NCBI GenBank assembly: GCA_965207885.1
Contig: OZ242311.1
Location: forward strand, 2,560,001 to 2,624,000
Direction of reading: 5' to 3'
Source of the DNA: Candidatus Latescibacterota bacterium
Lineage (GTDB): Bacteria > Latescibacterota > UBA2968
Length of the DNA: 64,000 bases
Shown: positions 1 to 64,000 of the stretch, piece after piece
Layout of the letters: every line of letters begins with the position of its first letter
Numbering within the stretch: the first letter of the stretch is position 1
Translations under genes and position numbers: made by a program
Notes under the pieces: generated by a model
Databases searched by the model: none
The model's input: the letters and a program-made list of their open reading frames with translations, nothing else
Told to the model about the DNA's origin: nothing

Positions 1-435
1 AAACGTTGGTCTCACCGGCGCGATAAGGAATGAGAATCCATGGCAGTCGGCAATGCGCTTCATAGCCAGTAAAATTTCTCGGCTGTAACCTTGTCCCTGG
101 CAATCAGGCCTTATATCGACTCCCAACGCGCAGAGGGTTGTAGGATTCTGTGTTCCTTCTCTCAAGCCCAATTCCAGTGTTGATGTCCAGCCTTCAGGTA
201 AATCTTCATCATGGCCGGTCCACGGGATGGGGATTGCGATACTATAGGCAGCCAGTCGATCCTCAGGTTCGCAATAATATAGTTGAAACTGGGGAAACTT
301 TGTGAGCAACTGAGCTGTTATCTCCTTGGGCCCCTCGGCATGAAAGATGAACTCGGGCCAGTTCGTACGGGAATCCCATGTCTGCTCTCGCAGATCGGGG
401 TGCTCGGTATGCGAATACACTGTCAACTTTTTCAC
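1..435 (-). CDS. GNAT-like N-acetyltransferase (3' end outside window)
   Basis: Manual translation from GTG at 435: MKKLTVYS...WPEFIFH...LCALGVDIRPDCQGQGYS...LIAPVRPTF; acetyl-CoA QGxG motif; open to the window edge. Confidence 0.75.
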   Translation of the reverse strand, partial: MKKLTVYSHTEHPDLREQTWDSRTNWPEFIFHAEGPKEITAQLLTKFPQFQLYYCEPEDRLAAYSIAIPIPWTGHDEDLPEGWTSTLELGLREGTQNPTTLCALGVDIRPDCQGQGYSREILLAMKRIADCHGFSFLIAPVRPTF

Positions 436-454
436 AGTATTTTTGTAATCCCTT

Positions 455-1303
455 CTAATTGGTTCTACGCCGAGAGGGTCTATTTATAGCGTCAGCCAGC
501 AATTGAAATCCCCCATCACGTTTATAGGTGCTCAGCCAATTCCCGCTTACAAATTCAAAATCGCCGGTCTCTGTATCGAGCGCACCAATACATCCTTCGT
601 TTATAACCTGCAATGTTGGGTCTCTGGGGTTGCTCACTACGCTGACGACCTGAATGCACTCCGTTTCATACACTTTTCTCGGCTCGACTGGATGGTGAAA
701 GTGCCCAAATACATGGTAGCGCGGTTTCGATGTTCTCAGATATTCGAGCAAATCCTGAGGCCCTTCGGCGAGGTTATCAGCATCGGCACCAACTCCAAAT
801 CCTCCTTCGTGTGAAACGAGAATATCTATACCCCTTGTGTGGCTGCGTCTAAGAGCCTTCGGGTTTCCTCCTTCACAAAAGCCAATTACTTCTTTTCCAA
901 CCTCAAGTGTGAAGCCGTCCGGTACGCACTCGAAGAGACCATGCGGGTCAAGTGGAATGGGTACAGAAGATTTTGTCTCTATAGCATTTCGAATAGCAGA
1001 GAATTCGTCGTGATTGCCTGCTACCACAAGGATCGAAGATGTCAATTGCGCCCGTGTATCGCGTGCGAGTTGTGCATCTGGCCCCTCTGCCAGGATGAGG
1101 CTACACAAATCGTACACGGCTGGGTCCCACTGTGCAAACCTGTCGTAGGGAATCTCACCACTCTGCGGTAGTGGCATAACCCCCAGATCGCCAACCTGCA
1201 CGACAAGGTCAAATATCTTTTTTCGCATTGACTGCCAGGTCAGGAGAATGGCAAGGGCATGGCATGCGCGTCCATGTATATCGCCTATGAAACCTATAAT
1301 CAA
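455..1303 (-). CDS. Calcineurin-like metallophosphoesterase
   Basis: GDIHG, VGDLG, GNHD, GHFH motifs. Confidence 0.85.
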   Translation of the reverse strand: MIIGFIGDIHGRACHALAILLTWQSMRKKIFDLVVQVGDLGVMPLPQSGEIPYDRFAQWDPAVYDLCSLILAEGPDAQLARDTRAQLTSSILVVAGNHDEFSAIRNAIETKSSVPIPLDPHGLFECVPDGFTLEVGKEVIGFCEGGNPKALRRSHTRGIDILVSHEGGFGVGADADNLAEGPQDLLEYLRTSKPRYHVFGHFHHPVEPRKVYETECIQVVSVVSNPRDPTLQVINEGCIGALDTETGDFEFVSGNWLSTYKRDGGFQLLADAINRPSRRRTN

Positions 1304-1363
1304 TTTAAGTTCCTTCTACCAAATGGTCCCTTCCATAGAGTGGTATGATCTCGCTTATATTCA

Positions 1364-1834
1364 TCAACACTCAGCGGACTGTAGATCGTTCCTGATTTTT
1401 GCACAAATCTCATTCATTTTATCTTCACTTACTCTTTCTTCTGGAGGGACTCCCAAATAGCCAAATACTTGCGCGCTTTGTCGGTTGGCTGGTTGATCAG
1501 CCATTCGCGGCACAATATGGAAATGAACATGCGGGTGATCCTCGTGTTCGGCAAATTGAATCACGTATGTTTTCACGCATCCGATTATACTCTTAAGGGA
1601 CGAGGAAACACGGCGAATCAGTGGGCCTAATTCAGCGGCTTCTTGCTCAGTAAGCTCATCAAGAGATTCGATGTGTCGTTTCAGAACCAATACCAGCCAC
1701 CCGGGTAAAGCGGTGTTATATGCATGCGCCACGTCCCAGTATTCGGTCTGGTAAATGCAGTCCCAAAGTGGAGCCTTACCCAGTCTTCTTTGCGCTGTTA
1801 ATTCGCACGTTTTACACACGTCACGACCGTTCAT
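1364..1834 (-). CDS. HIT family protein
   Basis: HVHFHIVPR histidine triad, N-terminal CxxC. Confidence 0.85.
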   Translation of the reverse strand: MNGRDVCKTCELTAQRRLGKAPLWDCIYQTEYWDVAHAYNTALPGWLVLVLKRHIESLDELTEQEAAELGPLIRRVSSSLKSIIGCVKTYVIQFAEHEDHPHVHFHIVPRMADQPANRQSAQVFGYLGVPPEERVSEDKMNEICAKIRNDLQSAEC

Positions 1835-1921
1835 ATGCGGCCTCTCGTTGCATCTTTATATTGAGGGGTTTTATCCGTTGGATTCCTCGGATGAATATCT
1901 TGACTGCCTGTGCATGACAGC

Positions 1922-3286
1922 TCAGAGTTTGTGTGTAGCAATCTCGTACATTTTGTCTGTGCAGGTCTTGAGGACTTTCAGGAGTTCTGGATATGGTTCG
2001 CCGTAGCCGGTGAGCAATCCAGAATGCTGACGGTCCTGTTTTTGGGAGACCAGATTGGAGGCGTCAATCAGACCGCAATAGTGCCAGCCAATAAATTCCG
2101 GGCGCGCAAAGGCGTTCCGAAAGAACTCATCGGTCCATTCGGCTCGCTGTTCGATGTTGTCTGCCACGGGACCGTAGGGGCGCGGCATGGTATCTGTGAT
2201 CATCGTGAATGCAGAATCGCCATTGATCAGCGGCTTGTCGGCGATCCTGTACCAGCGATCTAATCCGGGTTTTTGCACTTCGTATCGCGCATACATTTGA
2301 TAGAATACGATGTCGGTAAATTGGCTTGTAATGGGCAATAGGGTATCCAGCGCATCTGTGTTGGCATTGATTTTGTCGCCGACGAACAGGTGATTTGGAT
2401 CGTATCGGCGGATCGCATCTCGCGTTGTCTGGTAGTATTTTGCGACGACTTTTTGGAGGAATTCAATATTGTCGCGGGTTTCGTTGCCATTAGAAAGATC
2501 GGTGTGTGGCCGCCAGTTCTCGGCTATTTGGAGCGCGTCAAATGAATCAAATTGCGTGCTATAAGTTGTGTTGAAATCGCTGATTTGCCCGCGATATATA
2601 TCGCTCATGGTCTGAACATAAGCCTTTTTGCCCGGTGCATTGGCACCCAAATTGCGCAGCCGCCGCGGCCAGCCTATTCGAGCTTCCCGGCGTGCGCCGC
2701 CAATTACGTCGGGGCGTTCCCGGCAATCTTCTTCTGTAAACAGCGGACAGTCGGTCATGGCATAACCGAGCAGGAAGGGATCATCTTTTGTAGGCGCAGC
2801 AAACTCCTTTGCCATCTGATCGCAGTGTGAGGCAAATGTTTCTGAAAAGACATCCAAAAAATTGCTGTCGGGTATTTCTGCCTGCCAATGTGGGATATCG
2901 ACAAAGTGAATCGACTGCATATAGGGGATAGATGGCTGCGGGCGATTGACGGCTGACAACTCTGTGTGTACGCCTACTGTATTGAAGCCGTACTGACGAC
3001 ATGTTTGCAGGAACCAGGTTTTGAGGGCAGGTGTGAATTCGCGGCTGTCCAGATTGTCTATGCCCAATCGCTTTTTCCAGGCTTCGCGATTGTAGTCCTG
3101 TTTCCACAGATGGGGATGCAGGTGGTTTATTCCGAAGCTCAGAAACGCATTCCCCTCGGGCGTTACGAGCCACCATCTTTCGTCTTTTTCTATGCGAAAA
3201 AAGCCAGTTGCCTCAAATTTCTTGCCCGTCCAGCCGCCGTATTGATCGCGTTCGGCGGTGTCCCGGTGCGATTTATGTCTGTTCAT
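1922..3286 (-). CDS. Beta-agarase/GH50-like glycoside hydrolase
   Basis: D.YGGW...ATGFFRIEK..RWWLVTPEGNAFLSFGIN, DPFLLGY, AIRRYDPNHL, FIGWHY. Confidence 0.65.
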   Translation of the reverse strand: MNRHKSHRDTAERDQYGGWTGKKFEATGFFRIEKDERWWLVTPEGNAFLSFGINHLHPHLWKQDYNREAWKKRLGIDNLDSREFTPALKTWFLQTCRQYGFNTVGVHTELSAVNRPQPSIPYMQSIHFVDIPHWQAEIPDSNFLDVFSETFASHCDQMAKEFAAPTKDDPFLLGYAMTDCPLFTEEDCRERPDVIGGARREARIGWPRRLRNLGANAPGKKAYVQTMSDIYRGQISDFNTTYSTQFDSFDALQIAENWRPHTDLSNGNETRDNIEFLQKVVAKYYQTTRDAIRRYDPNHLFVGDKINANTDALDTLLPITSQFTDIVFYQMYARYEVQKPGLDRWYRIADKPLINGDSAFTMITDTMPRPYGPVADNIEQRAEWTDEFFRNAFARPEFIGWHYCGLIDASNLVSQKQDRQHSGLLTGYGEPYPELLKVLKTCTDKMYEIATHKL

Positions 3287-3317
3287 TTGGGTACCTTTGA
3301 ATAGTTATCAGAGTATT

Positions 3318-4169
3318 TTACTCGGCGGGAATAACTTCTCGTGTAACCTCTTGAACTTTACCGGGGAAGGTTTGTCCTCTTATCCACATAATGGGTTGGC
3401 CGTTGCCGGCGTTTTCAGGATTCATCCATTCTGCTTGCGCACTTAAGTAATGCGATACATAGCTGCGCCTAAATCGTTGGCTATGATTATTTGTGCTTTT
3501 GTGTAGCAGGTGAGAGTGGAACCAGATGACCGCACCAGGGGGGGCTTCTACGGGAATGCCGTCCTCATCGCGGGCATTGCGCGCGAGTTTGAATTCATTT
3601 TGCTGAGATCCTTCAATGTCGTCGTGTTCGGAGATTTCCTGTTTGTGACTGCCGGGAATTACGTAGAGGCAGCCGTTTTCGCGATCGGCTGGATCGACTG
3701 CTGTCCAGGTGCCGACAGTTGTCGCTGTTTTGAACCGCCTGCCAAAGTAAAATTTGTCCTGATGCCAGGGGAATCCCAATCCGATTTTTGGGGCTTTCCA
3801 GATGAAGAGGTTGTTGATGCCCAGAATGTCTGGGCCGAGTATGTCGAGGAGTGGGTCTGTCAGGCGTGGGTCGCGCACGCGGGCGAGGAATTCCGGGATG
3901 TAGCAACTGGGGTGGTGGATTTTGTGCATGGCGTAGATACCCGATTGTTTGTGTTTGCCGTCCCGGACGAGGGCATTGCGGTCGATATGAGCCATTGGCA
4001 TTTTTCGCTTTCCCTCGACAATGTCTTCGGCGACCTGCCGCAGGTCGTCGTTTTCTTTATGTGAAAAGACGTTTTCCCGCACAAAATATCCATTGCGCTC
4101 CCAGTGCTGAATTTCATCGGGTGTCATGCGGTTGGTATTTGTTTTTAATGGTGTTGCTGGGTTTTTCAT
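3318..4169 (-). CDS. Phytanoyl-CoA dioxygenase family (PhyH) protein
   Basis: WHQD, NGCLYVIPGSH, HKS..N.S..FRR; likely start MKNPATP at 4169 after AGGAG. Confidence 0.9.
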   Translation of the reverse strand: MKNPATPLKTNTNRMTPDEIQHWERNGYFVRENVFSHKENDDLRQVAEDIVEGKRKMPMAHIDRNALVRDGKHKQSGIYAMHKIHHPSCYIPEFLARVRDPRLTDPLLDILGPDILGINNLFIWKAPKIGLGFPWHQDKFYFGRRFKTATTVGTWTAVDPADRENGCLYVIPGSHKQEISEHDDIEGSQQNEFKLARNARDEDGIPVEAPPGAVIWFHSHLLHKSTNNHSQRFRRSYVSHYLSAQAEWMNPENAGNGQPIMWIRGQTFPGKVQEVTREVIPAE

Positions 4170-4411
4170 ATACGATCTCCTGAGTATGATAGTGATCAAT
4201 CGGTAGTCGAGAACTGCCTTGTAGTAATTTGCTATTGAGCTCTGGTATTTACGATAGCCGAAGTTCCTTTGGACTCGACTTTGTCCGTTTTGAGAGATAT
4301 ATTCAAATTGCGGATGGGGAAAAGCAAAGAGTGTATCCTTTAATATCTGAAAAAAATAAATATTATGCAATTATCTGTAGGGAGATTGCGTTTTAGCACA
4401 GGGAGCGGGAG

Positions 4412-5251
4412 ATGGCAAATGCAGGTGTGAGATCGAAACGGGAGATTTTGCTCGATACCGGATATTTTGTAGAAAAGGGCGTCCTGAGCGATTCGGATAT
4501 TAGGGTTTGTAAGGATCGATTGCGAGAGATTGCGCTCCGTATTGATTTTTACCGCGATAAGCTTCGGGCGATTATAGATGTGCAGGACGAGGCGTACCAG
4601 AACCATCCCGATCCTCTGTTGCGATTTGATTGGATCAATGAGATTTCGTTTCGCGATCGGGTATTGTGGAAATATTCTGCTGCACACCCCAGGCTTATCG
4701 CATTGGCTATGGAAGTGTTAGGTCCCGATATTTATCCACTTAATGGCGGCGGGTTCTTTATGAAGCCTCCCCGTTGTGGCGGTGAGGTACCGTGGCACCA
4801 GGATGCGAGTCCTTTCGATGGTTCAGAGGATATACCCGTGCCTGTGCTTTTCGATTTCTGGCTGGGACTGGATGCGGCAGATGTTGAGAATGGGTGTATG
4901 GAACTGATTCCTGGATCGCATACCTTGGGGCGTTTGGAGCACGAGCAAACGGGTAAGATTTTGAGGGAGATGGATCCCTTTAAGCACGGATTTACCGAGG
5001 ACGATGTGGTGCGTATTGAGACTGATCCTGGCGATGTGATTGTGTGGCATCAAGATCTGATCCACCGATCTTCTGCTAATTTCTCAGATCGTCCGCGGAT
5101 TGGCAAAGCGAGTGTTTATATGTCCCAAGCCGATGAGGAGACGATACGGCAAATGTCCGATCCCTGGGGAATGAATCCGAATCGACCACCGATCTGTTTG
5201 GACAGTAAAATCTGTGAGCTGACGCATTTTATTGAAGCACCGGGGCTGTAA
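4412..5251 (+). CDS. Phytanoyl-CoA dioxygenase family (PhyH) protein
   Basis: PWHQD, NGCMELIPGSH, HRSSAN.SDRPR; RBS GGGAG. Confidence 0.9.
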   Translation: MANAGVRSKREILLDTGYFVEKGVLSDSDIRVCKDRLREIALRIDFYRDKLRAIIDVQDEAYQNHPDPLLRFDWINEISFRDRVLWKYSAAHPRLIALAMEVLGPDIYPLNGGGFFMKPPRCGGEVPWHQDASPFDGSEDIPVPVLFDFWLGLDAADVENGCMELIPGSHTLGRLEHEQTGKILREMDPFKHGFTEDDVVRIETDPGDVIVWHQDLIHRSSANFSDRPRIGKASVYMSQADEETIRQMSDPWGMNPNRPPICLDSKICELTHFIEAPGL

Positions 5252-5693
5252 GTGCTGGCAGTTTTTTCATCTGAACATGTGTAGAATCTTCACCGATGAT
5301 TGAAAATCCCAGTCTCTGGTAGAAGGCGATGCCGCGGATGTTGATCTTTAATACTTGAAGGTTTACAGCTTTCCCCGCAGCGTTGGCATCAGCGAGAATG
5401 CTTGTCATGCACGCTGATCCGATTCCTCTACCCTGATACTCAGGATGGATAAAGAACTGATAGACCTTGAGAGAATCGGAAGTACAGGATGTGGAGAAGA
5501 AACCAATATCGTTTCCTTGAAATTGGATAATGCGAAAATTCTGCGAATCAAACCGCTTATTGTGTAATCCCCTCTGATGTGTATCGTCCCACTCCTCGAC
5601 CTGCTCCACATATTCGCGGAATGCGGCCTTCTTTACGGCAAAGACAAAGTCGCTGTCAGTTGCATCCGCCTTCCGAATGTTCAACTCTTTCAT
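5229..5693 (-). CDS. GNAT N-acetyltransferase
   Basis: IHPEYQGRGIG, N.RGIAFYQRLGF. Confidence 0.88.
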   Translation of the reverse strand: MKELNIRKADATDSDFVFAVKKAAFREYVEQVEEWDDTHQRGLHNKRFDSQNFRIIQFQGNDIGFFSTSCTSDSLKVYQFFIHPEYQGRGIGSACMTSILADANAAGKAVNLQVLKINIRGIAFYQRLGFSIIGEDSTHVQMKKLPALTAPVLQ

Positions 5694-5726
5694 GGAGAGA
5701 CCTTTTATTAGAATGTATCCTGGCAT

Positions 5727-6218
5727 TTACCACACTTCTTTCCCTACAGGTTTTCCCCAATCTAACTCTTCGATCGGTTTCACCATCTCGAGGTACCAGG
5801 GAGCAAATCCACAGTCCCGATAAAATGCAAGGATGTCATCGAAACGCTTCGCTGCCGAGTAGAGCCGCATGTAACCGAATCCAGCGGCTTCTGCTTTTGA
5901 TTGAGCAGTTTTGACCAGTCGCTGGCCTATTCCACTGTGGCGGGATTCGGGACGCACATATAGTTCAATGATTTCGAGAATACGGCTACCTTCGGGGAAT
6001 ACACATTCGCCTCGATATGGCCGTTCCTCACAATAGATGAATCCAACAGATTCACAGCCATCTATCGCCAAAAAGAGCCAATCCAGGTCACGATTATTCC
6101 ATACTTCCACCGAATCGGATCCATAACCCCATATTGCGCCTTCGGATGTTAGGTCTTCTTGCATCGAAAGGACGGCGACTATATCCGCCTCGTTTGCCTT
6201 ACGGATTGTAACGGTCAT
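5727..6218 (-). CDS. GNAT N-acetyltransferase
   Basis: LYVRPESRHSGIG, FYRDCGF. Confidence 0.88.
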   Translation of the reverse strand: MTVTIRKANEADIVAVLSMQEDLTSEGAIWGYGSDSVEVWNNRDLDWLFLAIDGCESVGFIYCEERPYRGECVFPEGSRILEIIELYVRPESRHSGIGQRLVKTAQSKAEAAGFGYMRLYSAAKRFDDILAFYRDCGFAPWYLEMVKPIEELDWGKPVGKEVW

Positions 6219-6252
6219 ATTGCATCCAGTCCAGTACTGGCAATTCCTGCAT

Positions 6253-7071
6253 CTAACCGAAATGTTCTTCTAACCATGCAACGGCGAAATCAGTCAGATC
6301 CTTAGCGTCGAACAAATAAGAGTCTGCGGCTCCAACCCGTCCTGTTGCATAGCTTGCCTGGGTCATATATTCCTCTACAATACGAAGGAAATAGTCGCCA
6401 TTGGGGGGCCCCCAATCGACGATGCCACCAGAAGTGTCAAATTGCTCAAATTCTATCCATTCGCACTTGCCATCACGCAAGATGGGCCACCGATAGCGCT
6501 CGGTTTTCTTGTTGGGCACGTCAGCAATATGCTCTGCGTAATGTAGAATCGTCAGGCTATCAAAGAGTGGTCCAAGCAGTAGTATTCGCCCCCTGACTTT
6601 GCACAATTTTGCGAGAGGGGAGCCTGCACCATAACCAAATTGGAGGGGATGATCCGATGTGATCCACTCCGCTTTTGCACCAATAGCCGCCATTCTTGCT
6701 TCAGGATGGTTGCTGCAATACGCGCCGGGCCATGTTCGGAGGTGCTCGGTGAGGATGCTCCACTTGCGGAAGGCGCGTGTCCGTTTAGGATCAAACGGTG
6801 GGCATTCTGCCAGGTACGCTTTTTGCCAGTCCTCTGGCCAATATTCAATTTCGTTTAGAGGCTCCTCGCATTTTATGTACATCATCAAGGTGCCCGTAGG
6901 TCCAATCACATCCAAAATTGCCTGAATCACCATATCAGGTCCGCCAACGATCCAGCCGACTGCCTTGACAGACGCGTGCAGCATCAGGGTATCGCCCGGG
7001 ACAATCCCCAGTTTTGATAAGTCAGATACCAGCTTGCTTCGCGTAATTACTGGCAAATCTATTTTCGCCAT
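6253..7071 (-). CDS. aac(3): Aminoglycoside 3-N-acetyltransferase family (Antibiotic_NAT)
   Basis: LGI.PGDTLMLHASVKAVGWIVGG, GTLMMY, S.HP, G.GSPLAKL, LTILHYAEH. Confidence 0.85.
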   Translation of the reverse strand: MAKIDLPVITRSKLVSDLSKLGIVPGDTLMLHASVKAVGWIVGGPDMVIQAILDVIGPTGTLMMYIKCEEPLNEIEYWPEDWQKAYLAECPPFDPKRTRAFRKWSILTEHLRTWPGAYCSNHPEARMAAIGAKAEWITSDHPLQFGYGAGSPLAKLCKVRGRILLLGPLFDSLTILHYAEHIADVPNKKTERYRWPILRDGKCEWIEFEQFDTSGGIVDWGPPNGDYFLRIVEEYMTQASYATGRVGAADSYLFDAKDLTDFAVAWLEEHFG

Positions 7072-7108
7072 TGCGATCTCCTTTTTAGATCAGGTTTATC
7101 ATAATCCT

Positions 7109-8380
7109 CTATTTATCTAAACCAGGTACAACTGCGCCATGTGACAAAAGCAATTCGCGCAGATCGGAAATAGGGACTTCGCGAGGTGTGGTTTCCAGAC
7201 GCACAGATAATGCAGCGGCAGCACCCACAGCCTGTCCCATGGCCATAGATGACGCCTGTACTCGTAAAGCGGAATTCGCCAACCGGTCACTGCTCACGCT
7301 GCGACCAGCGACCAGCAAATTGCGACTCTCTTTGGGGATAAGCGCGCGAAGAGGGACGGTGGGAACGATTCCTTTGGATAGCGGTCTGGGTTTGATGCCA
7401 TCGCGGTCGTGGAGATCAATGGGGTAAAAAGAATAGGATACGGCATCGTCAAAAAACCGTCCGCTCGTGTAATCTTCATGGGTTATTTGCACATCGCCAA
7501 CAATGCGATAGGTCTCACGCACGGCTGTTTCTGCCTGAGCTTTCAAAACACATGCGTTTTCGCACCCTGGTAGAGAACGCACAAAACGCAGAATCCGCAA
7601 TAGCGCCTGTCGCCCTGCTATGTTGGTTTTTGTATGCCTGTCAGAGGTTGATGCATCAGCACCAAATACATGCTGGGCATTTCCGCCTTTTCGAAGATAA
7701 CTGATAAATCGCACCTGTGGATTCATTACATCGCCGTGCTGCAAGCGGCCATCTTTAATGGCAGCAGAAAAATGCGCCTGAATGACCTCCTCATCCAGTG
7801 ATTCGACATTATACCCCCCGAGTTCAAAAATCAACGTGCCGGGTTGGGTTTCTTGTTCGCGCAAACGCGGAAAACCGATCTGCCCGACAATATTTGCGCC
7901 ACCAGTACAATCAATTAACTGTTTGGCCCATATAGTGCGGCGCATGTTTTTGCCTGTGGTTTCTACTGTCCAGCCCGTGTCCGTTTCTGAAACCCGAGCC
8001 GGTATTTCGTAGAAATGTAATTTCACCCCTGCTTGCGTACAGGCTTCTTCGACGAGTGCGGCATATACTGGACCGTTGATGCGAATTTGGTGCATCCAAT
8101 GGCGCTCGGGAGGTACTGAAAAATCTGGCAATTTTCTACTGTCAAGTGCCACAGCTTTTGTAACGAGTTCCCATCCGATACCCGCAATAATCTGTTTTCC
8201 CCAGGCGTGAAAAAGGCCCGGAAACGAGACCCCACCCGTTGTGGTTACACCACCGAGTTGGCTGCCGGATTCAATCAGGGCTGTGCGAAGTCCCGTGCGC
8301 CCAGCTTGTACCGCAGCAATGGTGCCCGCTGTACCACCGCCAATGACCAGAACATCTACATTTTCTTTCATGTGCTCCAT
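7109..8380 (-). CDS. FAD-dependent oxidoreductase
   Basis: VIGGGTAG Rossmann motif, IDCTG, RETYRI.G, NLLVAGR. Confidence 0.88.
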   Translation of the reverse strand: MEHMKENVDVLVIGGGTAGTIAAVQAGRTGLRTALIESGSQLGGVTTTGGVSFPGLFHAWGKQIIAGIGWELVTKAVALDSRKLPDFSVPPERHWMHQIRINGPVYAALVEEACTQAGVKLHFYEIPARVSETDTGWTVETTGKNMRRTIWAKQLIDCTGGANIVGQIGFPRLREQETQPGTLIFELGGYNVESLDEEVIQAHFSAAIKDGRLQHGDVMNPQVRFISYLRKGGNAQHVFGADASTSDRHTKTNIAGRQALLRILRFVRSLPGCENACVLKAQAETAVRETYRIVGDVQITHEDYTSGRFFDDAVSYSFYPIDLHDRDGIKPRPLSKGIVPTVPLRALIPKESRNLLVAGRSVSSDRLANSALRVQASSMAMGQAVGAAAALSVRLETTPREVPISDLRELLLSHGAVVPGLDK

Positions 8381-8400
8381 ATTGACAATCTCCCTGTGCT

Positions 8401-9000
8401 TTACTCCTCAGTTTCAGTGTCGCCAAGAGGATGAAGATCAATCGGTGTGAGAATTCCGTAAAATCCGTATTTGATACCTGAGCGATCTCCTTTTCCGGGC
8501 GGAAAGTATTCTTCTATAAGTGCCAATAATCGACGACCAAATTCTGATGCCTGTTCTTCAGATAGCCGCGCGCGGTTGTGATTGACGGATGTCTGGAATG
8601 TCGAACCGTACAAGCCCTCAGCAGCTTCGCGAAATGATTGATTGAACTGGCTGATAACATCGATTGGCATGGCCTCTGCAACCTGGTTGTTTGCGAGGAG
8701 GTCCTCTCGAACGCGAATCTTATCCGCTGCTGGCGAACAACGCCATTCATTGGGGTCAGTTTCACCTTCCTTTAAATGTACGACACCTGTTTCTGCCAGC
8801 TTTTTCAAGTGATACAGCACCCGGGCATCAGTAATTTCCAATGTCTGCGAGATTTCTGCAACCGACTTTCCGTCGCGAAGAGTTTCGAGGATGATCCAAC
8901 GCAGTGGATCGGCAAGTATGTTCGCGCGGTCATCCTCAATAACGATTACCGTCTCCTTTAAGGCATTGGTCGGGAATGTCAATTCGCGCCATGTACTCAT
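8401..9000 (-). CDS. Winged-helix (ArsR-like) transcriptional regulator
   Basis: LADPLRWIILETL..GKSVAEISQTL......VLYHLKKL. Confidence 0.75.
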   Translation of the reverse strand: MSTWRELTFPTNALKETVIVIEDDRANILADPLRWIILETLRDGKSVAEISQTLEITDARVLYHLKKLAETGVVHLKEGETDPNEWRCSPAADKIRVREDLLANNQVAEAMPIDVISQFNQSFREAAEGLYGSTFQTSVNHNRARLSEEQASEFGRRLLALIEEYFPPGKGDRSGIKYGFYGILTPIDLHPLGDTETEE

Positions 9001-9066
9001 TCATACTCTCCAGTCGTATAATTGAAGGATCACTCTTTGAGGCGGGGAAGCACATCTTCTGTATTT

Positions 9067-10182: not shown

Positions 10183-10261
10183 GTGGCTTCTCCTTGTATG
10201 CTACGCCAGAACTAAATTTTGCAGAAATCTTATCGCGCGTCTTCTGATTATTAAGGCTTGT

Positions 10262-11041: not shown

Positions 11042-11758
11042 TCAGGTCAGTTTTTCGACCAGATCATCGAAGTCAGATGCGCTTACATCAAAGGTCTCAA
11101 GGGGCATAGTAGGCTCATCCGTTGGAAACCTCCTCCACCAGTCGTTTTCCCTATGTACGTATGCGGTTTTCAGACCTGCGTTTTTGGCACCCTTGAGATC
11201 GTTCGCATGCGCCGCCACCATCATCACCTCATCTGGTGCGCAACCGAGGAGTTCAGCGGCCTGTTGATAAGCTCGCGTGTCTGTTTTATATCGCTCCAGA
11301 AATTCACACGATAATATACCGTCCCAACTGAGGTTGTTATACTTTGAGCAATCTACGGCAATTGCGTAACTCAATACGGTCAATATGATGACTGAATAAT
11401 GATCTCGCAATTTGTGTATTGCGCTAACAGCGTCTGGTCAGGTTTTCATTCTGTGCCACACCAGATTCAGGTCGTCCCTTTCCTTCGCGGAAAGATGAAT
11501 GGCGTTGAGGTTCTCGAGAATATTGTCAAGTACGAGCCGATGAATCGCATCGGCGTTCATCCTTGGCAACTCACCTGTTTTTACTCGCGCCAGCATCTCA
11601 AACATACCACTGCGCCAGTCCGTGGCGAACTGACGTGCGTCAAGCCTTACACCTTTTTCTGCTGACAATGCGCGGAGTTCTGCCTCAATCGTCCCTCTCC
11701 AATCAAAAACAGTACCTCCAACATCAAATGTAAGCGCTTTTACACCTGGATATTTCAT
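11042..11758 (-). pseudogene. Haloacid dehalogenase type II with an in-frame TGA at 11438-11440
   Basis: FDVGGTVFDW...WHRMKT*PDAVSAIHKLR...MMVAAHANDL; the two ORFs are in the same frame, 9 codons apart. Confidence 0.8.
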
Positions 11759-11768
11759 TGTTGGCTCC

Positions 11769-12320: not shown

Positions 12321-12343
12321 AGTTTATCCTTTTAGCTATCATT

Positions 12344-51551: not shown

Positions 51552-51573
51552 GGATAGAGTGGTTTTTGAAAAC

Positions 51574-51604: not shown

Positions 51605-51621
51605 ATTCCTTGCTCTGATAG

Positions 51622-54431: not shown

Positions 54432-54439
54432 TTGCCTAA

Positions 54440-54466
54440 TAGACCGAAAAAGCTGCCAAAGGTTCA
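54440..54466 (-). promoter_or_regulatory. ECF-type (sigmaE-like) promoter upstream of the sigma gene
   Basis: TGAACC-N16-GTCTA, 8 nt before ATG. Confidence 0.6.
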
Positions 54467-54530
54467 CAGAATTTTGAGCTTAAAAAAATAAACACAAAAA
54501 GCAACTTTTATGACTCGGCTATGATCGTCG

Positions 54531-55763: not shown

Positions 55764-57212
55764 TTAAATGCCTTTGTAGATATTGGAGGAGTACATTTCG
55801 AAGCCTTCGGGGCCGGGGTAGCCGTCGAAGAGGTTGCATTCGGGTACATTGCCGGGCGCGCCATTTTTGAGCCAGTTGATGAAGGTGGGGTCGGCATTGC
55901 GGTGTTTGAGTTCGGCGAGGCCCGACGCGTGAAGGTCTTGAACGCGATCGGGGTTTTCAGAAGCGATATTGTCCAGAGAGCCGTAGGGGGTGAGGATGCT
56001 GTCTTCGGGGTTGGGGTGCCATTCGAGATAGCCTTCCTGGTCGAAGACGGTAAAGTACCCGCGTTGAAGATGTCGCATCGCTTTGCCGCGCGCCACGCCT
56101 GATAGGGCGATTTCGCGGTTGCCCAGGCTGTTTTCACGCGCAGCTTTGAGGATGTCATAACTTTCGATATTATCGGGTATAGGCGCGCCTGATAGGTTGG
56201 CGATGGTGGCGAAGAAATCTTGTGGTTGAAAGATGGCAGAACTGCGACCTGTGTCGCCTTCGGGGGTTTTGATGAAAAGTGGGATGTGGATTTCTTGTTC
56301 GCGAACAGGTGCGCCTTTGCCGAATCTGCCGCGTTCACCGACGTTGGTGCCGTGATCGCCTGCGACGAGGATGGCGGTGTTTTTATCCAGGCCTGTGGCT
56401 TCAAGGGCTTCGAGAAAGCGGCCAAAGCAGTGGTCCATCCAGGTGACTTTGGCTGCGTAACTGGCTTTGATGCGTGCCCTGGCTGCGTCGGGTAAGTTGG
56501 GATTGCTGCGGGCTTGCGTTCCTCCTTTAAATATGCGAGGATCGAGCCGACCGTCATAGCCGGGCGTTTTGTCGTATTTGAGCATGAATTCGGGGGGTAC
56601 ATCCCAGGGTTCGTGAGGGTCGAAACAGTCGGTCCAGAGGAAGAAATTTCCCCGGTTTTTATTGTCGCGGAGAAACTCGGCGGCGGTGTTGAAGAGTCTG
56701 GCGCAGTTCCAGTCGTCTAAGTTTTCGCGACCTCTGTTGGTGCGGGCATATTGAATGGTTGGTATTGGGAGTTCGTCTTCGAGGATGTCAAAGAGCGGAT
56801 CTTTTGCCCAGTTGCTGGGCCATTTGGCTTCGTCATTTATCCAGGCGCGGTCAACTTCGGCACCGCGGATGAAGGTCCAGGTGTGAAAGGGATAATCGAA
56901 GGCGTGCCCCCCGTTGACGAGGTGGGGGGTGTCGTGCAGGAGTTGCGTCGCGTAGCCTGCTTCGCCGAGGATATACGGCAGTGCGTTGGTGTTGAAGGGC
57001 AGTGGTTTCCAGGCGTGAAAGGGACTGCCGTATTTGCCGGTCATGACGTCGGTGCGATAGGGGATGGTGGGAAAGCTCGCTGCGAAGGCACGGTCGAAAC
57101 ACCAGGATTGTGAGGCTAAGCGATCGAGGTTGGGGGTTTCGATCCAGTCATTGCCGTTGGCACCGATATAGTCGTAGCGCATGGTGTCGATGATTAAGAG
57201 AATGATGTTCAT
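55764..57212 (-). CDS. Sulfatase-like hydrolase (Thr at the nucleophile position)
   Basis: NIILLIIDT.R, TPNLDRLA, FPTIPYRTDVMTG, FDPHEPW, GDHG. Confidence 0.82.
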   Translation of the reverse strand: MNIILLIIDTMRYDYIGANGNDWIETPNLDRLASQSWCFDRAFAASFPTIPYRTDVMTGKYGSPFHAWKPLPFNTNALPYILGEAGYATQLLHDTPHLVNGGHAFDYPFHTWTFIRGAEVDRAWINDEAKWPSNWAKDPLFDILEDELPIPTIQYARTNRGRENLDDWNCARLFNTAAEFLRDNKNRGNFFLWTDCFDPHEPWDVPPEFMLKYDKTPGYDGRLDPRIFKGGTQARSNPNLPDAARARIKASYAAKVTWMDHCFGRFLEALEATGLDKNTAILVAGDHGTNVGERGRFGKGAPVREQEIHIPLFIKTPEGDTGRSSAIFQPQDFFATIANLSGAPIPDNIESYDILKAARENSLGNREIALSGVARGKAMRHLQRGYFTVFDQEGYLEWHPNPEDSILTPYGSLDNIASENPDRVQDLHASGLAELKHRNADPTFINWLKNGAPGNVPECNLFDGYPGPEGFEMYSSNIYKGI

Positions 57213-57395
57213 TGTAAATCTCCGAAGACGGATGGACGAATTAAGACCCTTGAAATCGCAATAAGCTATAGACCCATTTGTCCCGACACAATAGGAATAC
57301 ATACTGATCGGGCTGCCATTTCTTCATTGCTTTCTCTCGCGGATTTGTTCATATAAACAAGCCGTTATTATCTTTTTAAAACAGGAGGTTATCAG

Positions 57396-58376
57396 ATGTC
57401 CAAGCCGCTTTATCAACTGGACTGGCAGCGTTGGGAGCAGCCGGTTCTGTCGGGGATGACCACAAACCAGGACTGGTGCCGGGTGACGTTGTACAGCCCG
57501 ACTGTTCTCCGTATGGGCGATACGTACAAAATGTGGTACCTGGGCAACCGAACGGCCACGCGTACGAGCGATATGGATCTGGGGTATGCCGAGTCCCCGG
57601 ATGGGCTGACCTGGACGCCACATCCGGACAATCCGATCCTCAGCGGCGGGTTGCCGTGGGGCCGTGCGTGGCAAACGCCGCACGTGATTTTCGACAGCGA
57701 TGAGAATCTTTACAAGATGTGGTTCGTGATGGCTGACAGCCGTCCGGGTGAGGGGGGTAGGGCGATCGTTCTGGGACAGAAGCTGGGGTATGCGACCAGT
57801 TTCGACGGTCTGGCATGGGAGGCCTACTCCAAGTCGATCTATCCGAGCGGGCGGGGGCCGTGCGTGTTGAAGGAGGGACCAAATGCCTACCGCATGTGGA
57901 TGTGTTCATCCCCCAGTCCGGACGGAGAATTTGGAGATCTGGTCGGGAATATCTACCACTTCGAATCGACCGACGGCATCGCCTGGACGCGGGATCCCGA
58001 ACCGATGATCCGGGCCACGGAAACGCACCGGAGCGTGGTCTATCCGAGCGTTTTGCGGGATGGGCAGGGATATACGATGTGGTACGGATGCCATGTGGAG
58101 GGAGGAATCTTTGAGATTTTCTGTTCAACGTCGGAGGACGGACTGAATTGGACGCACCACCTGAAGGAGTCTTCGTTTCCCGCAACACGCGATCCGAACG
58201 ATTTCGACGGACGATACACATCTACGCCATGCGTACTGGACGACGGTGACCGCTACCTGATGTACTATTCCGCCCGAGACTGGGGAAACCTCTACCGGGC
58301 TGGGGACGGGACGATTAAGACCGACGGCGCGGGTATTTATCGCCACATCGGAGTGGCCGTATGTCCGAAGGAATAA
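57396..58376 (+). CDS. Five-bladed beta-propeller glycoside hydrolase-like protein (GH43/GH130-like)
   Basis: Repeated P.V...YxMWY and GYAxS.DGxxW units. Confidence 0.7.
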   Translation: MSKPLYQLDWQRWEQPVLSGMTTNQDWCRVTLYSPTVLRMGDTYKMWYLGNRTATRTSDMDLGYAESPDGLTWTPHPDNPILSGGLPWGRAWQTPHVIFDSDENLYKMWFVMADSRPGEGGRAIVLGQKLGYATSFDGLAWEAYSKSIYPSGRGPCVLKEGPNAYRMWMCSSPSPDGEFGDLVGNIYHFESTDGIAWTRDPEPMIRATETHRSVVYPSVLRDGQGYTMWYGCHVEGGIFEIFCSTSEDGLNWTHHLKESSFPATRDPNDFDGRYTSTPCVLDDGDRYLMYYSARDWGNLYRAGDGTIKTDGAGIYRHIGVAVCPKE

Positions 58377-59371
58377 ACCGATTTATTCGAAGATAGCCAA
58401 TCTAACTACCCCACCAAAACGAGTCAAGTCCACTCAGACTTTAACGTTGCTCCGACGACTTTATTCGCTTCACGACGGGAGCTCTCTTCCTTGGAGGATA
58501 ATCTGGGTGCAACCCGGCCATTCGCGGCGTCTGGGGACGGATCGGTCCCCAGTTGATCGCATAGGGGTGATCCTTACAGAGTTGCTCGATCTTTTCCCAG
58601 GCGGCGAGTACGTTCGCCTCTTCCCTTTTGTCTCCGTTCCAATACCGGGTCATTCCAGCGCGAATGTCGATCATGTGGCGGGTGTGATCCAGGCCTATGC
58701 GGACGAAATCGATCCGCGCCCCGAATCGCTCCGGTTCGTCCGTAACCTTGCGTGACGCCTGGTCGAGTAGCGCGTAAGCGCGGTCGAAGAACGCCTTGTC
58801 ATAGACATCCGGGTATGCTCGTTCACTTGCCCAAAAGATGCTGCGCGTCTCCTCCATCAGATTCCAATAGGCCTCGAGTTCCGTGGCTGCTGGGCCGAAT
58901 GCACGTTGATAGTAATTCTGTAGAATCGCCTGCCCATCCTGCGACGGATCCCACAAGAGATGCGCCATGAGATAGTATTGTGGCCCGTGCGTTGCCCAGT
59001 GTTCCCATACCATATCGACAAAGATGCCCATCGCTTTTTCACCGATCAGTTTGAAGTCCTCAATTGCTTGTATGAGAGCCACATCCGGCTGCCCCTGAGG
59101 CCAGCCTGCGGGGTCACCGACATTGGGTCGCCACATCATGTGCTTCGCGACCTTCGACCACGCGATGTATTGCTCTTTGTGTGTGGAACCCCTGGTCGAA
59201 CCACGGTCGATCAGGCCGTCTCGGTTGAGGAAATTCGCCACGCTTGCCACAATGACATTCTCTGCCGGAACTTCGCGAATCGGAGCAGGCCGGGAATGCC
59301 CGTAGGCCAGCATCATGACATAGTAGTCTCGATCCGGATAGCGCTGCTTGAGTAGCCGCGCACATGTGTTA

Positions 59372-60308
59372 GGTAGTGTCTGAAAAGTCGTAAAGTATGT
59401 ATTTTAGTTGCAGCATACGCCCTAAACCAAGGAGTATGATATGCAACGGAGATATGAACTGCGCGACGAGGCTTGGCATCTGATCCAAGACCTGTTCCCA
59501 CCGCCGAAGAAGATGGGTCGTCCCCGTCGGGATGATCGTACATTATTCAACGGGATCTTCTGGATATTGTGTTCAGGTGCAGCTTGGCGCGACCTGCCAG
59601 AACGATATGGTCCTTGGCAGACAGCCTTTGACCGATTCTGCAAATGGAAACAGGATGGCACCTTTGATCGCATTGTAGAAAAGCTACATCTCAAATTGGG
59701 TGAAGATGGTCTTTTAGATTATGCGACCTGGATGATGGATGCAACCCATATTCGAGCCACACAAGCCGCGGCAGGAGCGAAAAAAAAAGGGCAAAAAGGG
59801 TGAAGAAGAGCCCCCAGATCACGCTTTAGGACGCTCTCGTGGCGGTTTGACCACGAAAATCCATCTTCTTTGCGATGCAGTCGGGCATCCTTTAGCAGTG
59901 GATCTTCTCCCTGGTAACCAGTCAGAATCCACACAGGCTGAAAGGCTACTGTCAAAGGTATGCATACCCACCAAACGAGGGCGTCCAAGAAACCGACCCA
60001 AGTATCTGGTAGCTGATAAATCTTATGATGTCTCACGCATCAGAGTCTATCTACGCAAACGGGGTATCAAGGCTGCTATCCCAAACAAGGCGATTCCCAA
60101 AGGCAGAAAACGGCGTAAGAGAGGACCACGGCCTAAGTGTGATAAAAGATTATATGCCAAACGCAATATCGTGGAGCGTCTCTTTGGTTGGCTTAAACAC
60201 TGCCGACGGATTGTGACCCGATTTGAAAAAAAGGCGACTCATTTTCTCACTATGGTCAAGCTGGCCTGTATCAGACAACTCTTCAAAGCTTACTTTTCAG
60301 ACACTACC
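59372..60308 (+). mobile_element. IS5-family (IS427-like) element, 937 bp
   Basis: 17-bp perfect TIRs ggtagtgtctgaaaagt; TA duplication at 59370-59371 and 60309-60310. Confidence 0.93.
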
Positions 60309-60311
60309 TAG
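59441..60311 (+). CDS. IS5 transposase, orfA/orfB joined by a probable -1 frameshift
   Basis: WRDLPERYGPWQT, DATHIRA, A9-GGG slippery run near 59780, GRSRGGLTTKIH, ADKSYD, RNIVERLF. Confidence 0.9.
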
Positions 60312-61391
60312 CAAACCGGACGTGTCGATCAGATAGTGCGGGCCGTTCCTGCCTGGTCCCTTTCCAGTGAAACGAACGGAGTTCGCCATCCGGATGGTCC
60401 CAGGCGCAACAGGGCTCACAAACACAATGCCCGCTAGCCCAGCCGTCGTTAGGCGACGCATTGAAGACGCGTTGATTTGGGTTTTGTTTTAGTGCTTTCT
60501 CGACATCCGCGAGCCATTGCTGCGGTACCTCCGGATTCGATTGGCAGAGCTTGGCGTATTTGGGTTGTGGAAATCCGCTCCGCGTTCCGTCAGGCTGAAG
60601 GGCGAAGTATTCGGGGTGTGTTTCATGAAATCGCTCCCACCAGTCGCGGAATCCATGCCCCCCTTCCATTTCGAGGGAACCCAACTGCAGCCGTTGACGG
60701 CGTGTCCACTTCTGGGATCGACCGTATGATCCCCTGGGCGCCAGCCTGGAGTAACTGAACAGTCCGGCCCGGAAACGAAGACTGGGATGGTAGCGATAGC
60801 TGAAGGTCGCGAAGCGGATGGATTCCTGCGGGATGATATCCTCGCCGAGATCGCCAGGCCAGAGCCAACGCACGCCGAGTCGATCGTGCAGAAACGTATA
60901 GATCGCATTTACAGTCCCATACTCTTGCTGGATTCCCTCGATCCGTTTCCCGTTGATCTGTGCAATCAGGTGGTTGGGATCCCAACGGTCTCGCCCCGCG
61001 ATTACGAGGTGCTTTTCGCTCGCCGCGATGACGATTTCCTCGGGGTGTTGGAAGTCGAAGTCGATATTTGGAAACAGCGAATCAAGCGCCGGTTGGTAAC
61101 CCACCCAGATGGCCCGATCTGGGAATTGGCGGGGTGGACCGTCGATCCATTCCGGTCGAGTGCCACAGGTTTTCTCGATGTAATCGGCAAGATCAATCGC
61201 GGCTTTGCGCGTGAATGGTGGTGCATCTGGAAAGAGGATCAGCGGCGCCGGTTTGATCCCGGCTTTTTTGTCCACGAGGGTGAACTCGGCGGTATCGGCT
61301 GCTGAAATCGAGGTTAGCACGATGGAAACGGTGCGGAGCAGCTTGATTTTTTTTAACATGTTTTATTCCATTCATATACACTTAATATTTG

Positions 61392-62183: not shown

Positions 62184-62197
62184 TTTGGCCTCGCCTC

Positions 62198-62259
62198 CCT
62201 CAACCTGGTTTATCTATGAAATAGTCTGTGCAATCCGAATCGTATATACTATGTTAGGC
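62198..62259 (-). repeat. attC-like remnant
   Basis: Perfect R'' GCCTAAC 16 nt after the MFS stop; GTTGAGG at 62198-62204. Confidence 0.5.
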
Positions 62260-62275
62260 GCCTCGCAGACCCAGA

Positions 62276-63514
62276 TCATGGTTTTTTGTCTTCGATACTA
62301 ACAATAGATGGAATCATCCGAGCAGAAGTTCCGAGAATGAGGGTCAGTACTCCCGCCGCTAAAAACCACGGCTGCGGGCCAAATACATCGGTTACGGGAC
62401 CTATCACGATGAGCCCAAGCATAGTTGTAAATTGCACGGAACTATGAAGAGCGCCAAATACACGGCCTTGTAGATGGGGATCGACATTGGCCTGAAGGAG
62501 TGCGCGGAGAGGCGCGTTAATTAGCGAGCTACCGACGCCGCTTAAAGCTATGCCCGTGATGGCTAAAGCAAAGCGGGTATGAGGGGCGATACCTACGAGT
62601 ATTGTTCCAATGCCATATACAATCCAGCCGAAGATCGTCGTCATGATTCGGCGACGGAATCCACCCCAGGCCCCGATCAGAAGACCTCCCAGGACAATGC
62701 CCACTCCCCAGGCAGAATTAAACCAACCAAGTTCGGTAGCACCTCCATTGAAGTGATCTGTTATCAAGAGAGGCGAGATGGTCATCTTCGTGTTCCCAAA
62801 TATGTTTAATACGGCAGCAATTAAGATTAAGTTCCGAAGACCAATCCATCTCCACAAATAACGAAATCCTTCCAGCATATCAACCCAGATGCCAACTCCC
62901 TGGCTTTGCTTTTCCTCCATCCTTTTGGGCTGTGGAATCATAATGAAGATGAGGGGACAGATAGCCAGCATTGCCGTCAAAACATCGAGGGCCAATATGA
63001 TATGCATCTCGAATAAGGCCAGTGCCAGTGCTCCAAGGGGAGGCCCTCCCATGCTGAGTACTCCATGCAGGGTTTGGTTCGTCCCCTGGATTCTGGCCAG
63101 ATGTTTTTCTGGCACCATCAGAGGCGTGGCAGTTATCATCGCCAGGCCCTGGAATGCACGGCCAATACTCGCCAGGAAGTTTACTGCGTAGATATGCCAG
63201 ATCTCGATAATTTCCATCCAGAAAAGACCTGCCAGACCGGCCATGGCTATCGCGACAAGCGTATCCGAGACGAGCATTACAATTCGGCGGTTCCATCTAT
63301 CATTCAGTGTGCCAATGATAGGAGCCAGGAAGACTTCTGGCAGATAGGCGACAAGGACTGAGGTCGCGAGAATGGTCGCAGATCCTGTCTCTTCCGTAAG
63401 CCACCACACCAGGGCAAACTGTGCAACTTGAGTTCCAAGAGACGACAGCGTTTGTCCGGTCCAGATGGTAAAGAAGCCGCCAGCCCATGAACCATCTCTA
63501 TTCAGACGAATCAA
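62276..63514 (-). CDS. MFS transporter (Mef/DHA3-like)
   Basis: FFTIWTGQ.LS.LG..VAQFALVWWLT..TGSA, DRWNRR, LQGRVF. Confidence 0.9.
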   Translation of the reverse strand: MIRLNRDGSWAGGFFTIWTGQTLSSLGTQVAQFALVWWLTEETGSATILATSVLVAYLPEVFLAPIIGTLNDRWNRRIVMLVSDTLVAIAMAGLAGLFWMEIIEIWHIYAVNFLASIGRAFQGLAMITATPLMVPEKHLARIQGTNQTLHGVLSMGGPPLGALALALFEMHIILALDVLTAMLAICPLIFIMIPQPKRMEEKQSQGVGIWVDMLEGFRYLWRWIGLRNLILIAAVLNIFGNTKMTISPLLITDHFNGGATELGWFNSAWGVGIVLGGLLIGAWGGFRRRIMTTIFGWIVYGIGTILVGIAPHTRFALAITGIALSGVGSSLINAPLRALLQANVDPHLQGRVFGALHSSVQFTTMLGLIVIGPVTDVFGPQPWFLAAGVLTLILGTSARMIPSIVSIEDKKP

Positions 63515-64000
63515 TCATCTCTCCTTTTTATCTGAATCGGCAAGAAAGAACGTTCCCCTCTTTTTGAATCTAAAACTCTCATCGGGTACGACGAACGCCA
63601 GTTTATCACACAAAAAAGAGCCAGACGGAGCTGAATTTTGGAGCCGTACACAAAGCTCAAGGCTCTCGTCTATGGAGATGAACTCAGCAATGGTCATGTG
63701 CGGAGCTATGTTGCGCCTGTGATACGCTTCGCCGGAAAATGCCGATGTACTGTGGAGGATCTGCTTTAAATTATCGATAGGCTCTCGTGGCCTTATCGGA
63801 TACGAGACGCCAGGGTGCCTGGTTGAGGCATGCGGCTTGTCGTAATGAAGCGTGAATGGCTGGACATCCGTAAGGACGTTGTTGATTTCATCGATAAGAT
63901 CAGGTGTCATTTCCCGACCCAAGGGATCTGACAAAGAGATGTGCGTCGGGCAGGAGGCAGCTGAGCGGGGATCATACTTTGCTCGCAAGAGGTCGATATC
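63515..64000 (-). CDS. 2H phosphoesterase (2'-5' RNA ligase family), 5' end outside window
   Basis: PTHISL and PHMTIAEF HxT/S motifs; frame open to the window edge. Confidence 0.75.
   Translation of the reverse strand, partial: DIDLLRAKYDPRSAASCPTHISLSDPLGREMTPDLIDEINNVLTDVQPFTLHYDKPHASTRHPGVSYPIRPREPIDNLKQILHSTSAFSGEAYHRRNIAPHMTIAEFISIDESLELCVRLQNSAPSGSFLCDKLAFVVPDESFRFKKRGTFFLADSDKKER

Follow-up and report, generated by a model that had tools for sequence, protein, structure and literature searches.

The window analysed here is a stretch of 64,000 nt, bases 2,560,001-2,624,000 of the single-contig, complete 6.23-Mb chromosome (51% G+C) of a sponge-associated Candidatus Latescibacterota bacterium (GCA_965207885.1, contig OZ242311.1); all coordinates below are counted from its first base. 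It is the central part of an array of genes that run nearly all in one direction, without an integron integrase and without recognisable attC sites, and in which single open reading frames (ORFs) are gained, lost and relocated between close relatives. The feature is real, unusual and clearly bounded.

Pfam assigned to the window eight GNATs, five S-adenosylmethionine (SAM) methyltransferases, an AAC(3), two APH, two proteins with a beta-lactamase fold and two histidine phosphatases, and further HAD, NUDIX, VOC and GrpB proteins, three PhyH, two MFS_3, EamA, ArsR and a DUF4160/DUF2442 pair. Interspersed among these are five sulfatases, a PSD/PSCyt protein, DUF1552 and two insertion sequence (IS) elements. 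The assignments agree with a preliminary description of this DNA, which had called the content cassette-like (GNAT, methyltransferase, VOC, toxin-antitoxin). Judged by the domains, most of the encoded proteins would modify or export small molecules (GNAT, AAC(3), APH, ANT-like, SAM methyltransferase, NUDIX, HAD, VOC, beta-lactamase-fold, MFS, EamA). Similar content was found again outside the window (40 flanking ORFs scanned), while a tRNA scan and an Rfam scan of the window gave no match.

Genes were called crudely, as the longest ORFs ranked by a codon-usage score. By these calls the minus strand carries 58 of the 64 genes of the window; on the plus strand lie four ordinary genes, two IS5 ORFs and one probably spurious ORF (Table 1), and the co-orientation on the minus strand claimed earlier thus stands. 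The bias is local. Across 386 overlapping 64-kb intervals of the genome the majority strand had a median share of 0.65, and its share was at least 0.90 in just nine. The biased region extends from -27,900 to about 92,100 (about 120 kb) with the window as its centre, and encloses a shuffled core (about -5,600 to 78,200) with anchor genes at -5,596 and 78,179. GC skew is locally very strong along the chromosome (up to about +/-0.2 in 50-kb bins) with many sign changes, so that no simple origin/terminus pattern appears.

The preliminary description had counted about 70 unrelated genes of visibly changing base composition. The number was near to ours (64-68 called). Yet several genes are paralogues of one another (two His_Phos, a group of five methyltransferases, three PhyH and two MFS_3), and the composition is ordinary, with a standard deviation of per-gene GC of 0.046 versus 0.043 elsewhere (rank 154 of 489). 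What stands out is codon usage, with the lowest score among 489 intervals of 80 genes. The array genes are also short, with a median of 272 amino acids (rank 14 of 489 such intervals).

Table 1. Features of the window, with strand and basis of assignment.
Feature	Position	Strand	Basis or remark
Co-oriented array, central part	1-64000	-	Strand counts, synteny
Ordinary genes on the plus strand (n = 4)	4412-5251, 22611-23981, 42136-43167, 57396-58376	+	ORF caller
Two IS5 ORFs among the plus-strand calls		+	ORF caller, Pfam
Probably spurious ORF	60787-61305	+	Overlaps a DUF4838 fragment on the minus strand
AAC(3)-type N-acetyltransferase module	6253-7071	-	Pfam; absent in some relatives through differing imprecise deletions
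FAD-oxidoreductase module (ORF 7109-8380, 16-nt leader, 37-nt tail)	7072-8396	-	Pfam, synteny
Chimeric ORF: truncated ANT(2'')-like N-terminus and GrpB module (about 9039-9574)	9067-10182	-	Pfam, synteny
His_Phos copy 1	13481-14119	-	Paralogue at 17377-18018
DUF4160/DUF2442 pair, toxin-antitoxin-like	19820-20339	-	Pfam
Block of four sulfatases, PSD/PSCyt (DUF1592 etc.) and DUF1552	20460-30291	-	Pfam, synteny
NUDIX 5'-end remnant in spacer, 64 nt	14151-14214	-	91% identical to 12215-12278
Methyltransferase 3'-end remnant in spacer, 49 nt	41863-41911	-	96% identical to 46198-46246
Spacer segment, 89 nt	34263-34351	-	92% identical to array sequence at 64898-64986
Repeated spacer segment	61367-61475	-	Copies at 66939-67058 (86% identity) and 72479-72537 (97%)
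IS element of 2.8 kb, IS1-like DDE transposase	49208-51971	-	Three other identical copies in the genome; site empty in G008 and G010
IS5-family element	59373-60308	+	More than 20 copies in the genome; site empty in G004 and G006
AAC..GTT imperfect hairpin, 35 nt, TATAAC/GTTATA ends	45259-45293	-	Best attC-like candidate in the window; DNA folding z -0.9
Short hairpin with ATAACACGACC	48556-48602	-	z = -3.4 but plain 5-bp stem; in G010 other 89 nt precede the stretch
Abutting CATAAC / GTTATAC motif, possible collapsed attC core pair	37761-37776	-	No statistical support

Turnover was followed in relatives. The genus comprises more than 20 genomes, 13 of which are single contigs. About 160 kb of the syntenic locus was taken from six of them, and blocks and gene families were mapped over seven genomes including the source genome, G000 (G002, G004, G006, G008, G010, G017 and the like are labels of other genomes). 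Window DNA was present at the same locus in all six with 90-97% nucleotide identity, in blocks that break at gene boundaries. The flanks (-27.9 to -4.1 kb and 78.2 to 111.6 kb) had no family out of order on either side in any of the six comparisons. The core between the anchors holds 39-81 genes (41-82 kb) per genome. Its families number 142 over the seven genomes, 12 of them common to all and 59 confined to a single genome. Relative to G000, 18 core families are relocated (1-8 per genome), and the six congeners retain 10-28 of its 82 adjacencies. None of the 83 families present in more than one genome was seen in both orientations. Gene order is thus not conserved across relatives between flanks that show no reordering, and the seven genomes show an integrase-less array with the gene-by-gene turnover for which the preliminary description had proposed to look.

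Two 20-kb control regions elsewhere on the chromosome were collinear in five relatives, interrupted solely by IS elements, by small dispersed repeats and, once, by an indel. The dispersed repeats (about 50-240 nt, resembling MITE or REP elements) have many copies in all five relatives searched and mark the breaks between collinear blocks; in the control stretch G000:C1:1000001-1020000 they lie at 10437-10679, 14437-14509, 9573-9760 and 6428-6491. None was found in the spacers of the array. Gene-precise presence and absence with breaks 0-8 nt from stop codons was also seen in the collinear flanks (-20364 to -20098, 87800-88729 and other places), and ORF-level indels may be a genome-wide habit of the genus and not a property of the array alone.

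The locus is also found outside the assembled genomes. Sponge metagenome contigs from several studies contain a 10-kb stretch of the window. One independent contig (X8, 10 kb) matches 4333-14139 except for one replaced 79-nt stretch, and the alternative junctions 7071 to 8397/8408, 11038 to 15151 and 14139 to 18159 likewise occur in independent sponge metagenome contigs. Together with the flanks, which are collinear in six other genomes, these contigs speak against a chimeric assembly.

Variable gene content between conserved collinear flanks is what characterizes a flexible genomic island. The co-oriented, mostly promoterless single-gene units with turnover are like those of a cassette array or of a CALIN, defined by Cury et al. 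(2016, PMC4889954) as a cluster of attC sites lacking an integron integrase, with two or more attC sites (here taken as within 4 kb). Units bounded by IS elements or inverted repeats, as in a composite transposon or an IS-driven island, were not seen; the window has two IS elements, both recent single insertions missing in relatives.

The units of the array are single ORFs that keep little beyond their own Shine-Dalgarno (SD) leader. Breakpoints are close to start or stop codons, at distances of a few to about 20 nt, and the spacers have a median of 35 nt (67 gaps). Where the neighbours differ, homology extends upstream of the start for a median of 16 nt (interquartile range 2-56; 324 pairs, 59 families) and past the stop for a median of 3 nt (interquartile range -3 to 19; 375 pairs, 62 families). 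Frequently the stop region has been exchanged, and the upstream ORF then runs on into the SD of the next gene. Microhomology mediated by the SD was considered as a junction mechanism and rejected, because the ArsR-AAC(3) and sulfatase junctions have no SD overlap at the break.

Individual events could be reconstructed at several positions. The FAD-oxidoreductase module is variably present between ArsR and AAC(3), and the junctions have no core sequence in common; it is missing in G017 and G004, where 6 nt separate the ArsR stop from the AAC(3) start, and all genomes listed carry a paralogue of 79% nucleotide identity at another place. Two different deletions removed AAC(3) independently: G006 keeps its last 24 nt, another genome its first ~41 codons. 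GrpB is absent from G008, G017 and G002, stands as a free unit without the N-terminal ANT-like part in G006 and is fused in frame in G000. The DUF4160/DUF2442 pair is missing in G004 and G006, and its slot there holds the sulfatase gene 23982-25298. Two paralogue pairs appear to be in transit, the methyltransferases of G008 and the His_Phos copies of G000; the latter share a 300-nt core of 96% identity and enclose three genes (APH, beta-lactamase-family and GNAT). Both IS insertions in the window are specific to G000, and the IS5-family element splits a DUF4838 gene into 58441-59316 and 60304-61359. The reconstructable changes are not site-specific; they are imprecise deletions, duplications with junction repeats of 49-120 nt, and IS insertions.

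Spacers do contain pieces of other genes, as the preliminary description had it. Besides the 64-nt NUDIX and 49-nt methyltransferase remnants, two spacers hold 89- and 120-nt copies of array sequence from just outside the window. The methyltransferase remnant and its counterpart at 46198-46246 border a 4.3-kb segment of four genes, and in G008 the whole second methyltransferase copy is still present near the GNAT gene adjoining 41863-41911. No repeat family was found among the array spacers. The only over-represented words in the 73 co-oriented spacers of the region are SD words (AAGGAG in 13, against a maximum of 11 in 200 shuffles). The 11-mer ATAACACGACC has three of its five genome copies within 8 kb (41003, 45292 and 48598, minus strand), directly after stop codons. 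It was tried as an attC family and rejected, its left part arising at deletion junctions (comparison with G010, G017 and G004).

The absence of intI noted in the preliminary description was borne out by a search of G000 with TIGR02249, which detected Xer-like genes only; the best scored 88.6 bits versus a cut-off of 265, and the IntI-specific model positions 180-243 were skipped. No IntI exceeded the cut-off in the 21 genomes of the genus, and two of the 53 genomes of the order, G033 (464.5 bits) and G043 of the same family (274.4 bits), contain one. Other than those of IS transposases, no recombinase domain was found in the 68 window ORFs and 40 flanking ORFs scanned. An extra tyrosine recombinase is encoded at G005:C51:20385-21200 and at G010:C1:4368129-4368845; these outscore Xer on the IntI model in two stretches (117+104 and 104+97.5 bits), with the middle of the model missing, and remain below the cut-off.

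True attC arrays with IntI and co-oriented ORFs occur within the order, in G033 and also in G043, and G033 served as a positive control. Its co-oriented ORFs lie behind the integrase genes and are each followed by an imperfect hairpin of 55-131 nt with AAC..GTT cores, whose bottom strand folds with z of -1.9 to -5.5. The G033 cassettes run co-oriented with intI, not divergent. Behind every integron-integrase gene, in the same orientation, lies a second tyrosine-recombinase gene that is the same in each case (314-aa frame, 115.5 bits; three identical-score matches; G033:C1:2493564-2495430, 2158606-2160115 and 5719267-5719791).

Our own pattern scan found no canonical attC sites (at least 45 nt) in the spacers of the window, and because the median spacer is 35 nt an attC at most junctions is excluded. 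Short AAC..GTT hairpins occurred at background rate, with one non-coding match in the array versus 113 in 716 kb genome-wide. An R''-like heptamer was weakly enriched in spacers (6 versus 1.7 expected, P = 0.008). Two short attC-like candidates, 45259-45293 and 48556-48602, lie 3.3 kb apart. The best candidates (45259-45293, an 83-nt site in G006 and the elements flanking AAC(3) in the sister family) folded with z of -0.9 to +0.1, no better than shuffles. The density of short non-coding hairpins per kb was 1.35 in G033, 0.63 in the sister-family arrays, 0.46 in the genus arrays and 0.39 in G000, and did not separate these sets. With short spacers, the SD as the only enriched word, hairpins at background rate and candidates that fold like shuffles, the attC halves said to fill the spacers were not confirmed.

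Three further approaches to attC were given up. The putative 'mini-attC' elements bordering AAC(3) in sister-family genomes were persuasive on inspection, most of 10 loci having GTTRRRY-like heptamers some 44-50 nt before the ATG, and were rejected because they fold like shuffles. For a covariance model, eight G033 sites were compared; in the MAFFT alignment no more than the TAAC/GTTA cores matched up, and RNAalifold returned 0 pairs. The loose scan for AAC..GTT hairpins was too unspecific, giving 39 matches in 20 kb of the positive control, four of them real.

The age of the gene content was judged from relatives in other lineages. Ten distinct array genes of G000 (13 matches) have relatives with 51-87% amino acid identity in co-oriented arrays of two sister-family genomes, at least 69% for eight of the ten. 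The best-hit taxonomy proposed as a check in the preliminary description was covered for one gene, AAC(3): 19 of 24 related loci belong to metagenome-assembled genomes of Latescibacterota/Latescibacteria, pointing to a long-term resident rather than a recent import. None of the four checks that might have refuted the preliminary description (gene order, strand bias, assembly and, for this one gene, taxonomy) did so. Because of the relatives in the sister family and of AAC(3) relatives lying nearly all within the phylum, at least part of the array content is old and lineage-resident, not freshly imported.

Terminator-like and promoter-like sites in the array did not exceed shuffles. One strong sigma-70-like promoter was predicted at 30342-30371, upstream of the sulfatase/PSD block. 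Of the 30 bins into which positions 1-20000 were divided, 24 are covered by contigs from two sponge RNA libraries, and one contig spans the ArsR-AAC(3) junction; cover is absent at 7338-8004 and 14008-17342, which is not evidence of silence. These contigs, in which DNA carry-over is possible, only suggest co-transcription. Probably the array is read through in long transcripts from few promoters.

The sulfatase/PSD block is kept whole (about 10 kb) in relatives. The sulfatase family as such is hugely expanded; the sulfatases of the array (20460-26546 and 55764-57302) each have between 150 and 180 paralogues in the genome by BLASTP (E<1e-10). Positions 53238-54467 hold an ORF of 409 amino acids that joins an ECF-type sigma factor (regions 2 and 4) to a domain like that of 3-keto-disaccharide hydrolases; it has 13 paralogues in the genome.

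Taken together, we read the locus, with a probability of roughly 0.55, as an integrase-less, attC-poor, flexible co-oriented array at a fixed position that evolves by general recombination and is possibly a decayed integron array. Genes would be lost by imprecise deletions, which selection would trim to ORF plus SD. Orientation would be preserved, since neither a segmental (tandem) duplication with later loss nor a deletion between genes of one direction alters it. Insertion of IS elements would be a further source of change, and homologous recombination through conserved neighbouring genes could replace alleles. With genes so tightly packed, selection to keep ORF and SD intact would trim junctions convergently, and the reuse of 5' boundaries in different contexts may be a consequence of such convergent trimming to the SD. 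Speculatively, layout and gene content would be the legacy of an integron-type array that lost its integrase before the genus diversified, and its attC hairpins by deletion.

Several observations weigh against this reading. The same 5' boundary is kept in two to three contexts by the HIT gene (about -10), the sulfatase gene 23982-25298 (-18) and the MFS gene (-14). Such reuse is what a site-specific process would give, and a dedicated process would be the simpler explanation for it. A duplicated family (at least 75% amino acid identity) is present in just two of the seven genomes, though 18 relocations need explaining. The case for integron ancestry is weak, as hairpins are not enriched and the folding of the candidates falls short of that of the G033 sites (z of -0.9 to +0.1 versus -1.9 to -5.5). 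The G033 cassettes were tried as relatives of the array genes and rejected, since they share at most 41% amino acid identity with them. The eroded, domesticated cassette array of the preliminary description is plausible from layout and lineage, with IntI and true attC arrays in the order.

The reuse of boundaries would be accounted for if an undescribed process independent of an integrase moved or captured single ORFs in one direction, with ends at the SD or start and at the stop. Candidate mechanisms would be template switching at junctions formed by start codons, an RNA-mediated process or one guided by an unknown nuclease. Such a process fits the ORF-precise units, the unit boundary that recurs in other contexts without filler nucleotides, the relocation of 18 families with no inversion and few duplicated intermediates, and an ORF-only paralogue of a gene from elsewhere in the genome that sits in the array. 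It also fits a one-for-one replacement in which a beta-lactamase-family gene (G008, G010 and G002) and a NUDIX gene (G004) occupy the same slot between the same two neighbours. However, no candidate enzyme is encoded in or next to the array, the junctions share no motif but the SD, and imprecise deletions and junction repeats show ordinary processes at work. Furthermore, selection for intact ORF and SD in a tight array can mimic precision, and gene-precise presence and absence extends into the collinear flanks. The different capture process that the preliminary description had offered as its other choice thus gained no positive evidence, given ordinary events and no recombinase in or beside the array, and we consider it unlikely. 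Doubtful to the same degree is an active movement of ORFs, independent of integrase and attC, within and between the co-oriented arrays of sponge-symbiont Latescibacterota, with ends at the ribosome-binding site and the stop codon.

If the array were a functional CALIN, its cassettes would be moved by an integron integrase acting in trans on attC sites that are unusually short (about 35-40 nt) or too divergent for the scans. Co-orientation, cassette-type content, gene-by-gene turnover and relocation without inversion agree with this, as do the IntI and attC arrays in the order, the weak enrichment of the R''-like heptamer and three short AAC..GTT elements in the window with ends of the TATAAC/GTTATAC type resembling some G033 attCs. 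Yet none of the 21 genus genomes has an IntI over the cut-off, an attC does not fit into spacers of 35 nt (median) with shared tails of 3 nt, and the candidates fold like shuffles. The losses leave differing gene remnants and are therefore not site-specific. We regard a functional CALIN as quite improbable. Finally, an ordinary conserved operon region or an assembly chimera, to which only the sulfatase/PSD block conserved as one unit would correspond, is refuted by the few adjacencies kept in congeners, by flanks collinear in six other genomes and by contig X8, which covers 4333-14139 but for its 79-nt replacement.

If the array indeed evolves by general recombination, it shows a possible fate of a large cassette-type array after site-specific recombination has been lost. 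Such an array would not be frozen; it would be compacted to bare ORFs while general recombination continues, with a pool of 142 families in seven genomes. This affects the recognition of CALIN-like and attC-less arrays, as attC-based tools would miss the present one. It also bears on how uncultured sponge symbionts keep a variable repertoire of enzymes that modify antibiotics and xenobiotics. Should a dedicated process make the ORF-precise, orientation-preserving moves instead, that process would constitute a new system of gene capture, functionally analogous to the integron and working without hairpin sites.

Flexible (additive) genomic islands and hypervariable plasticity zones carry strain-specific content at one locus between conserved flanks. 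The array resembles them in its strain-specific genes at the same locus, with exchange probably through flanking homology. It differs by about 90% co-orientation, single-ORF units, 18 relocations without inversion and the lack of a border tRNA or integrase. For restriction-modification genes, Nobusato et al. are said to have described in 2000 an 'insertion with long target duplication'. Similar to this, multi-gene segments of the array are bordered by direct repeats of 49-120 nt of a neighbouring gene end (41863-41911 / 46198-46246 and 12215-12278 / 14151-14214). Here, in contrast, the repeats may equally be leftovers of tandem duplication and deletion, and the cargo is not restriction-modification.

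Among papers judged by title and the start of the abstract, none treated integrons or cassette arrays of Latescibacterota or of sponge symbionts. The nearest published situation that we found, going by the accessible part of the report, is that of Xanthomonas, where integrons were inactivated lineage-wide and cassette genes persist as arrays (bioRxiv 10.1101/2025.06.18.660453). Both cases would share an ancestral platform with lineage-wide loss of integrase activity and cassette genes that remain. As far as that part of the report goes, the Xanthomonas arrays are still recognised as integrons, whereas here neither an integrase gene nor recognisable sites are left and the array is still changing.

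Measured against sedentary chromosomal integron arrays and CALIN, junctions here are mostly too short for attC (median 35 nt), no candidate passes the folding control and losses are imprecise. Also part of the array are a sulfatase operon of 10 kb, which is conserved, and genes encoding 400-800 amino acids, and the genus has no IntI. On the other hand, like those arrays it is a one-way series of mostly small, unrelated accessory genes (GNAT, methyltransferase, VOC, toxin-antitoxin-like) with no integrase nearby, and it is gained, lost and reordered gene by gene between close relatives at one locus. The locus works like a chromosomal integron cassette array or CALIN, and it may descend from one.

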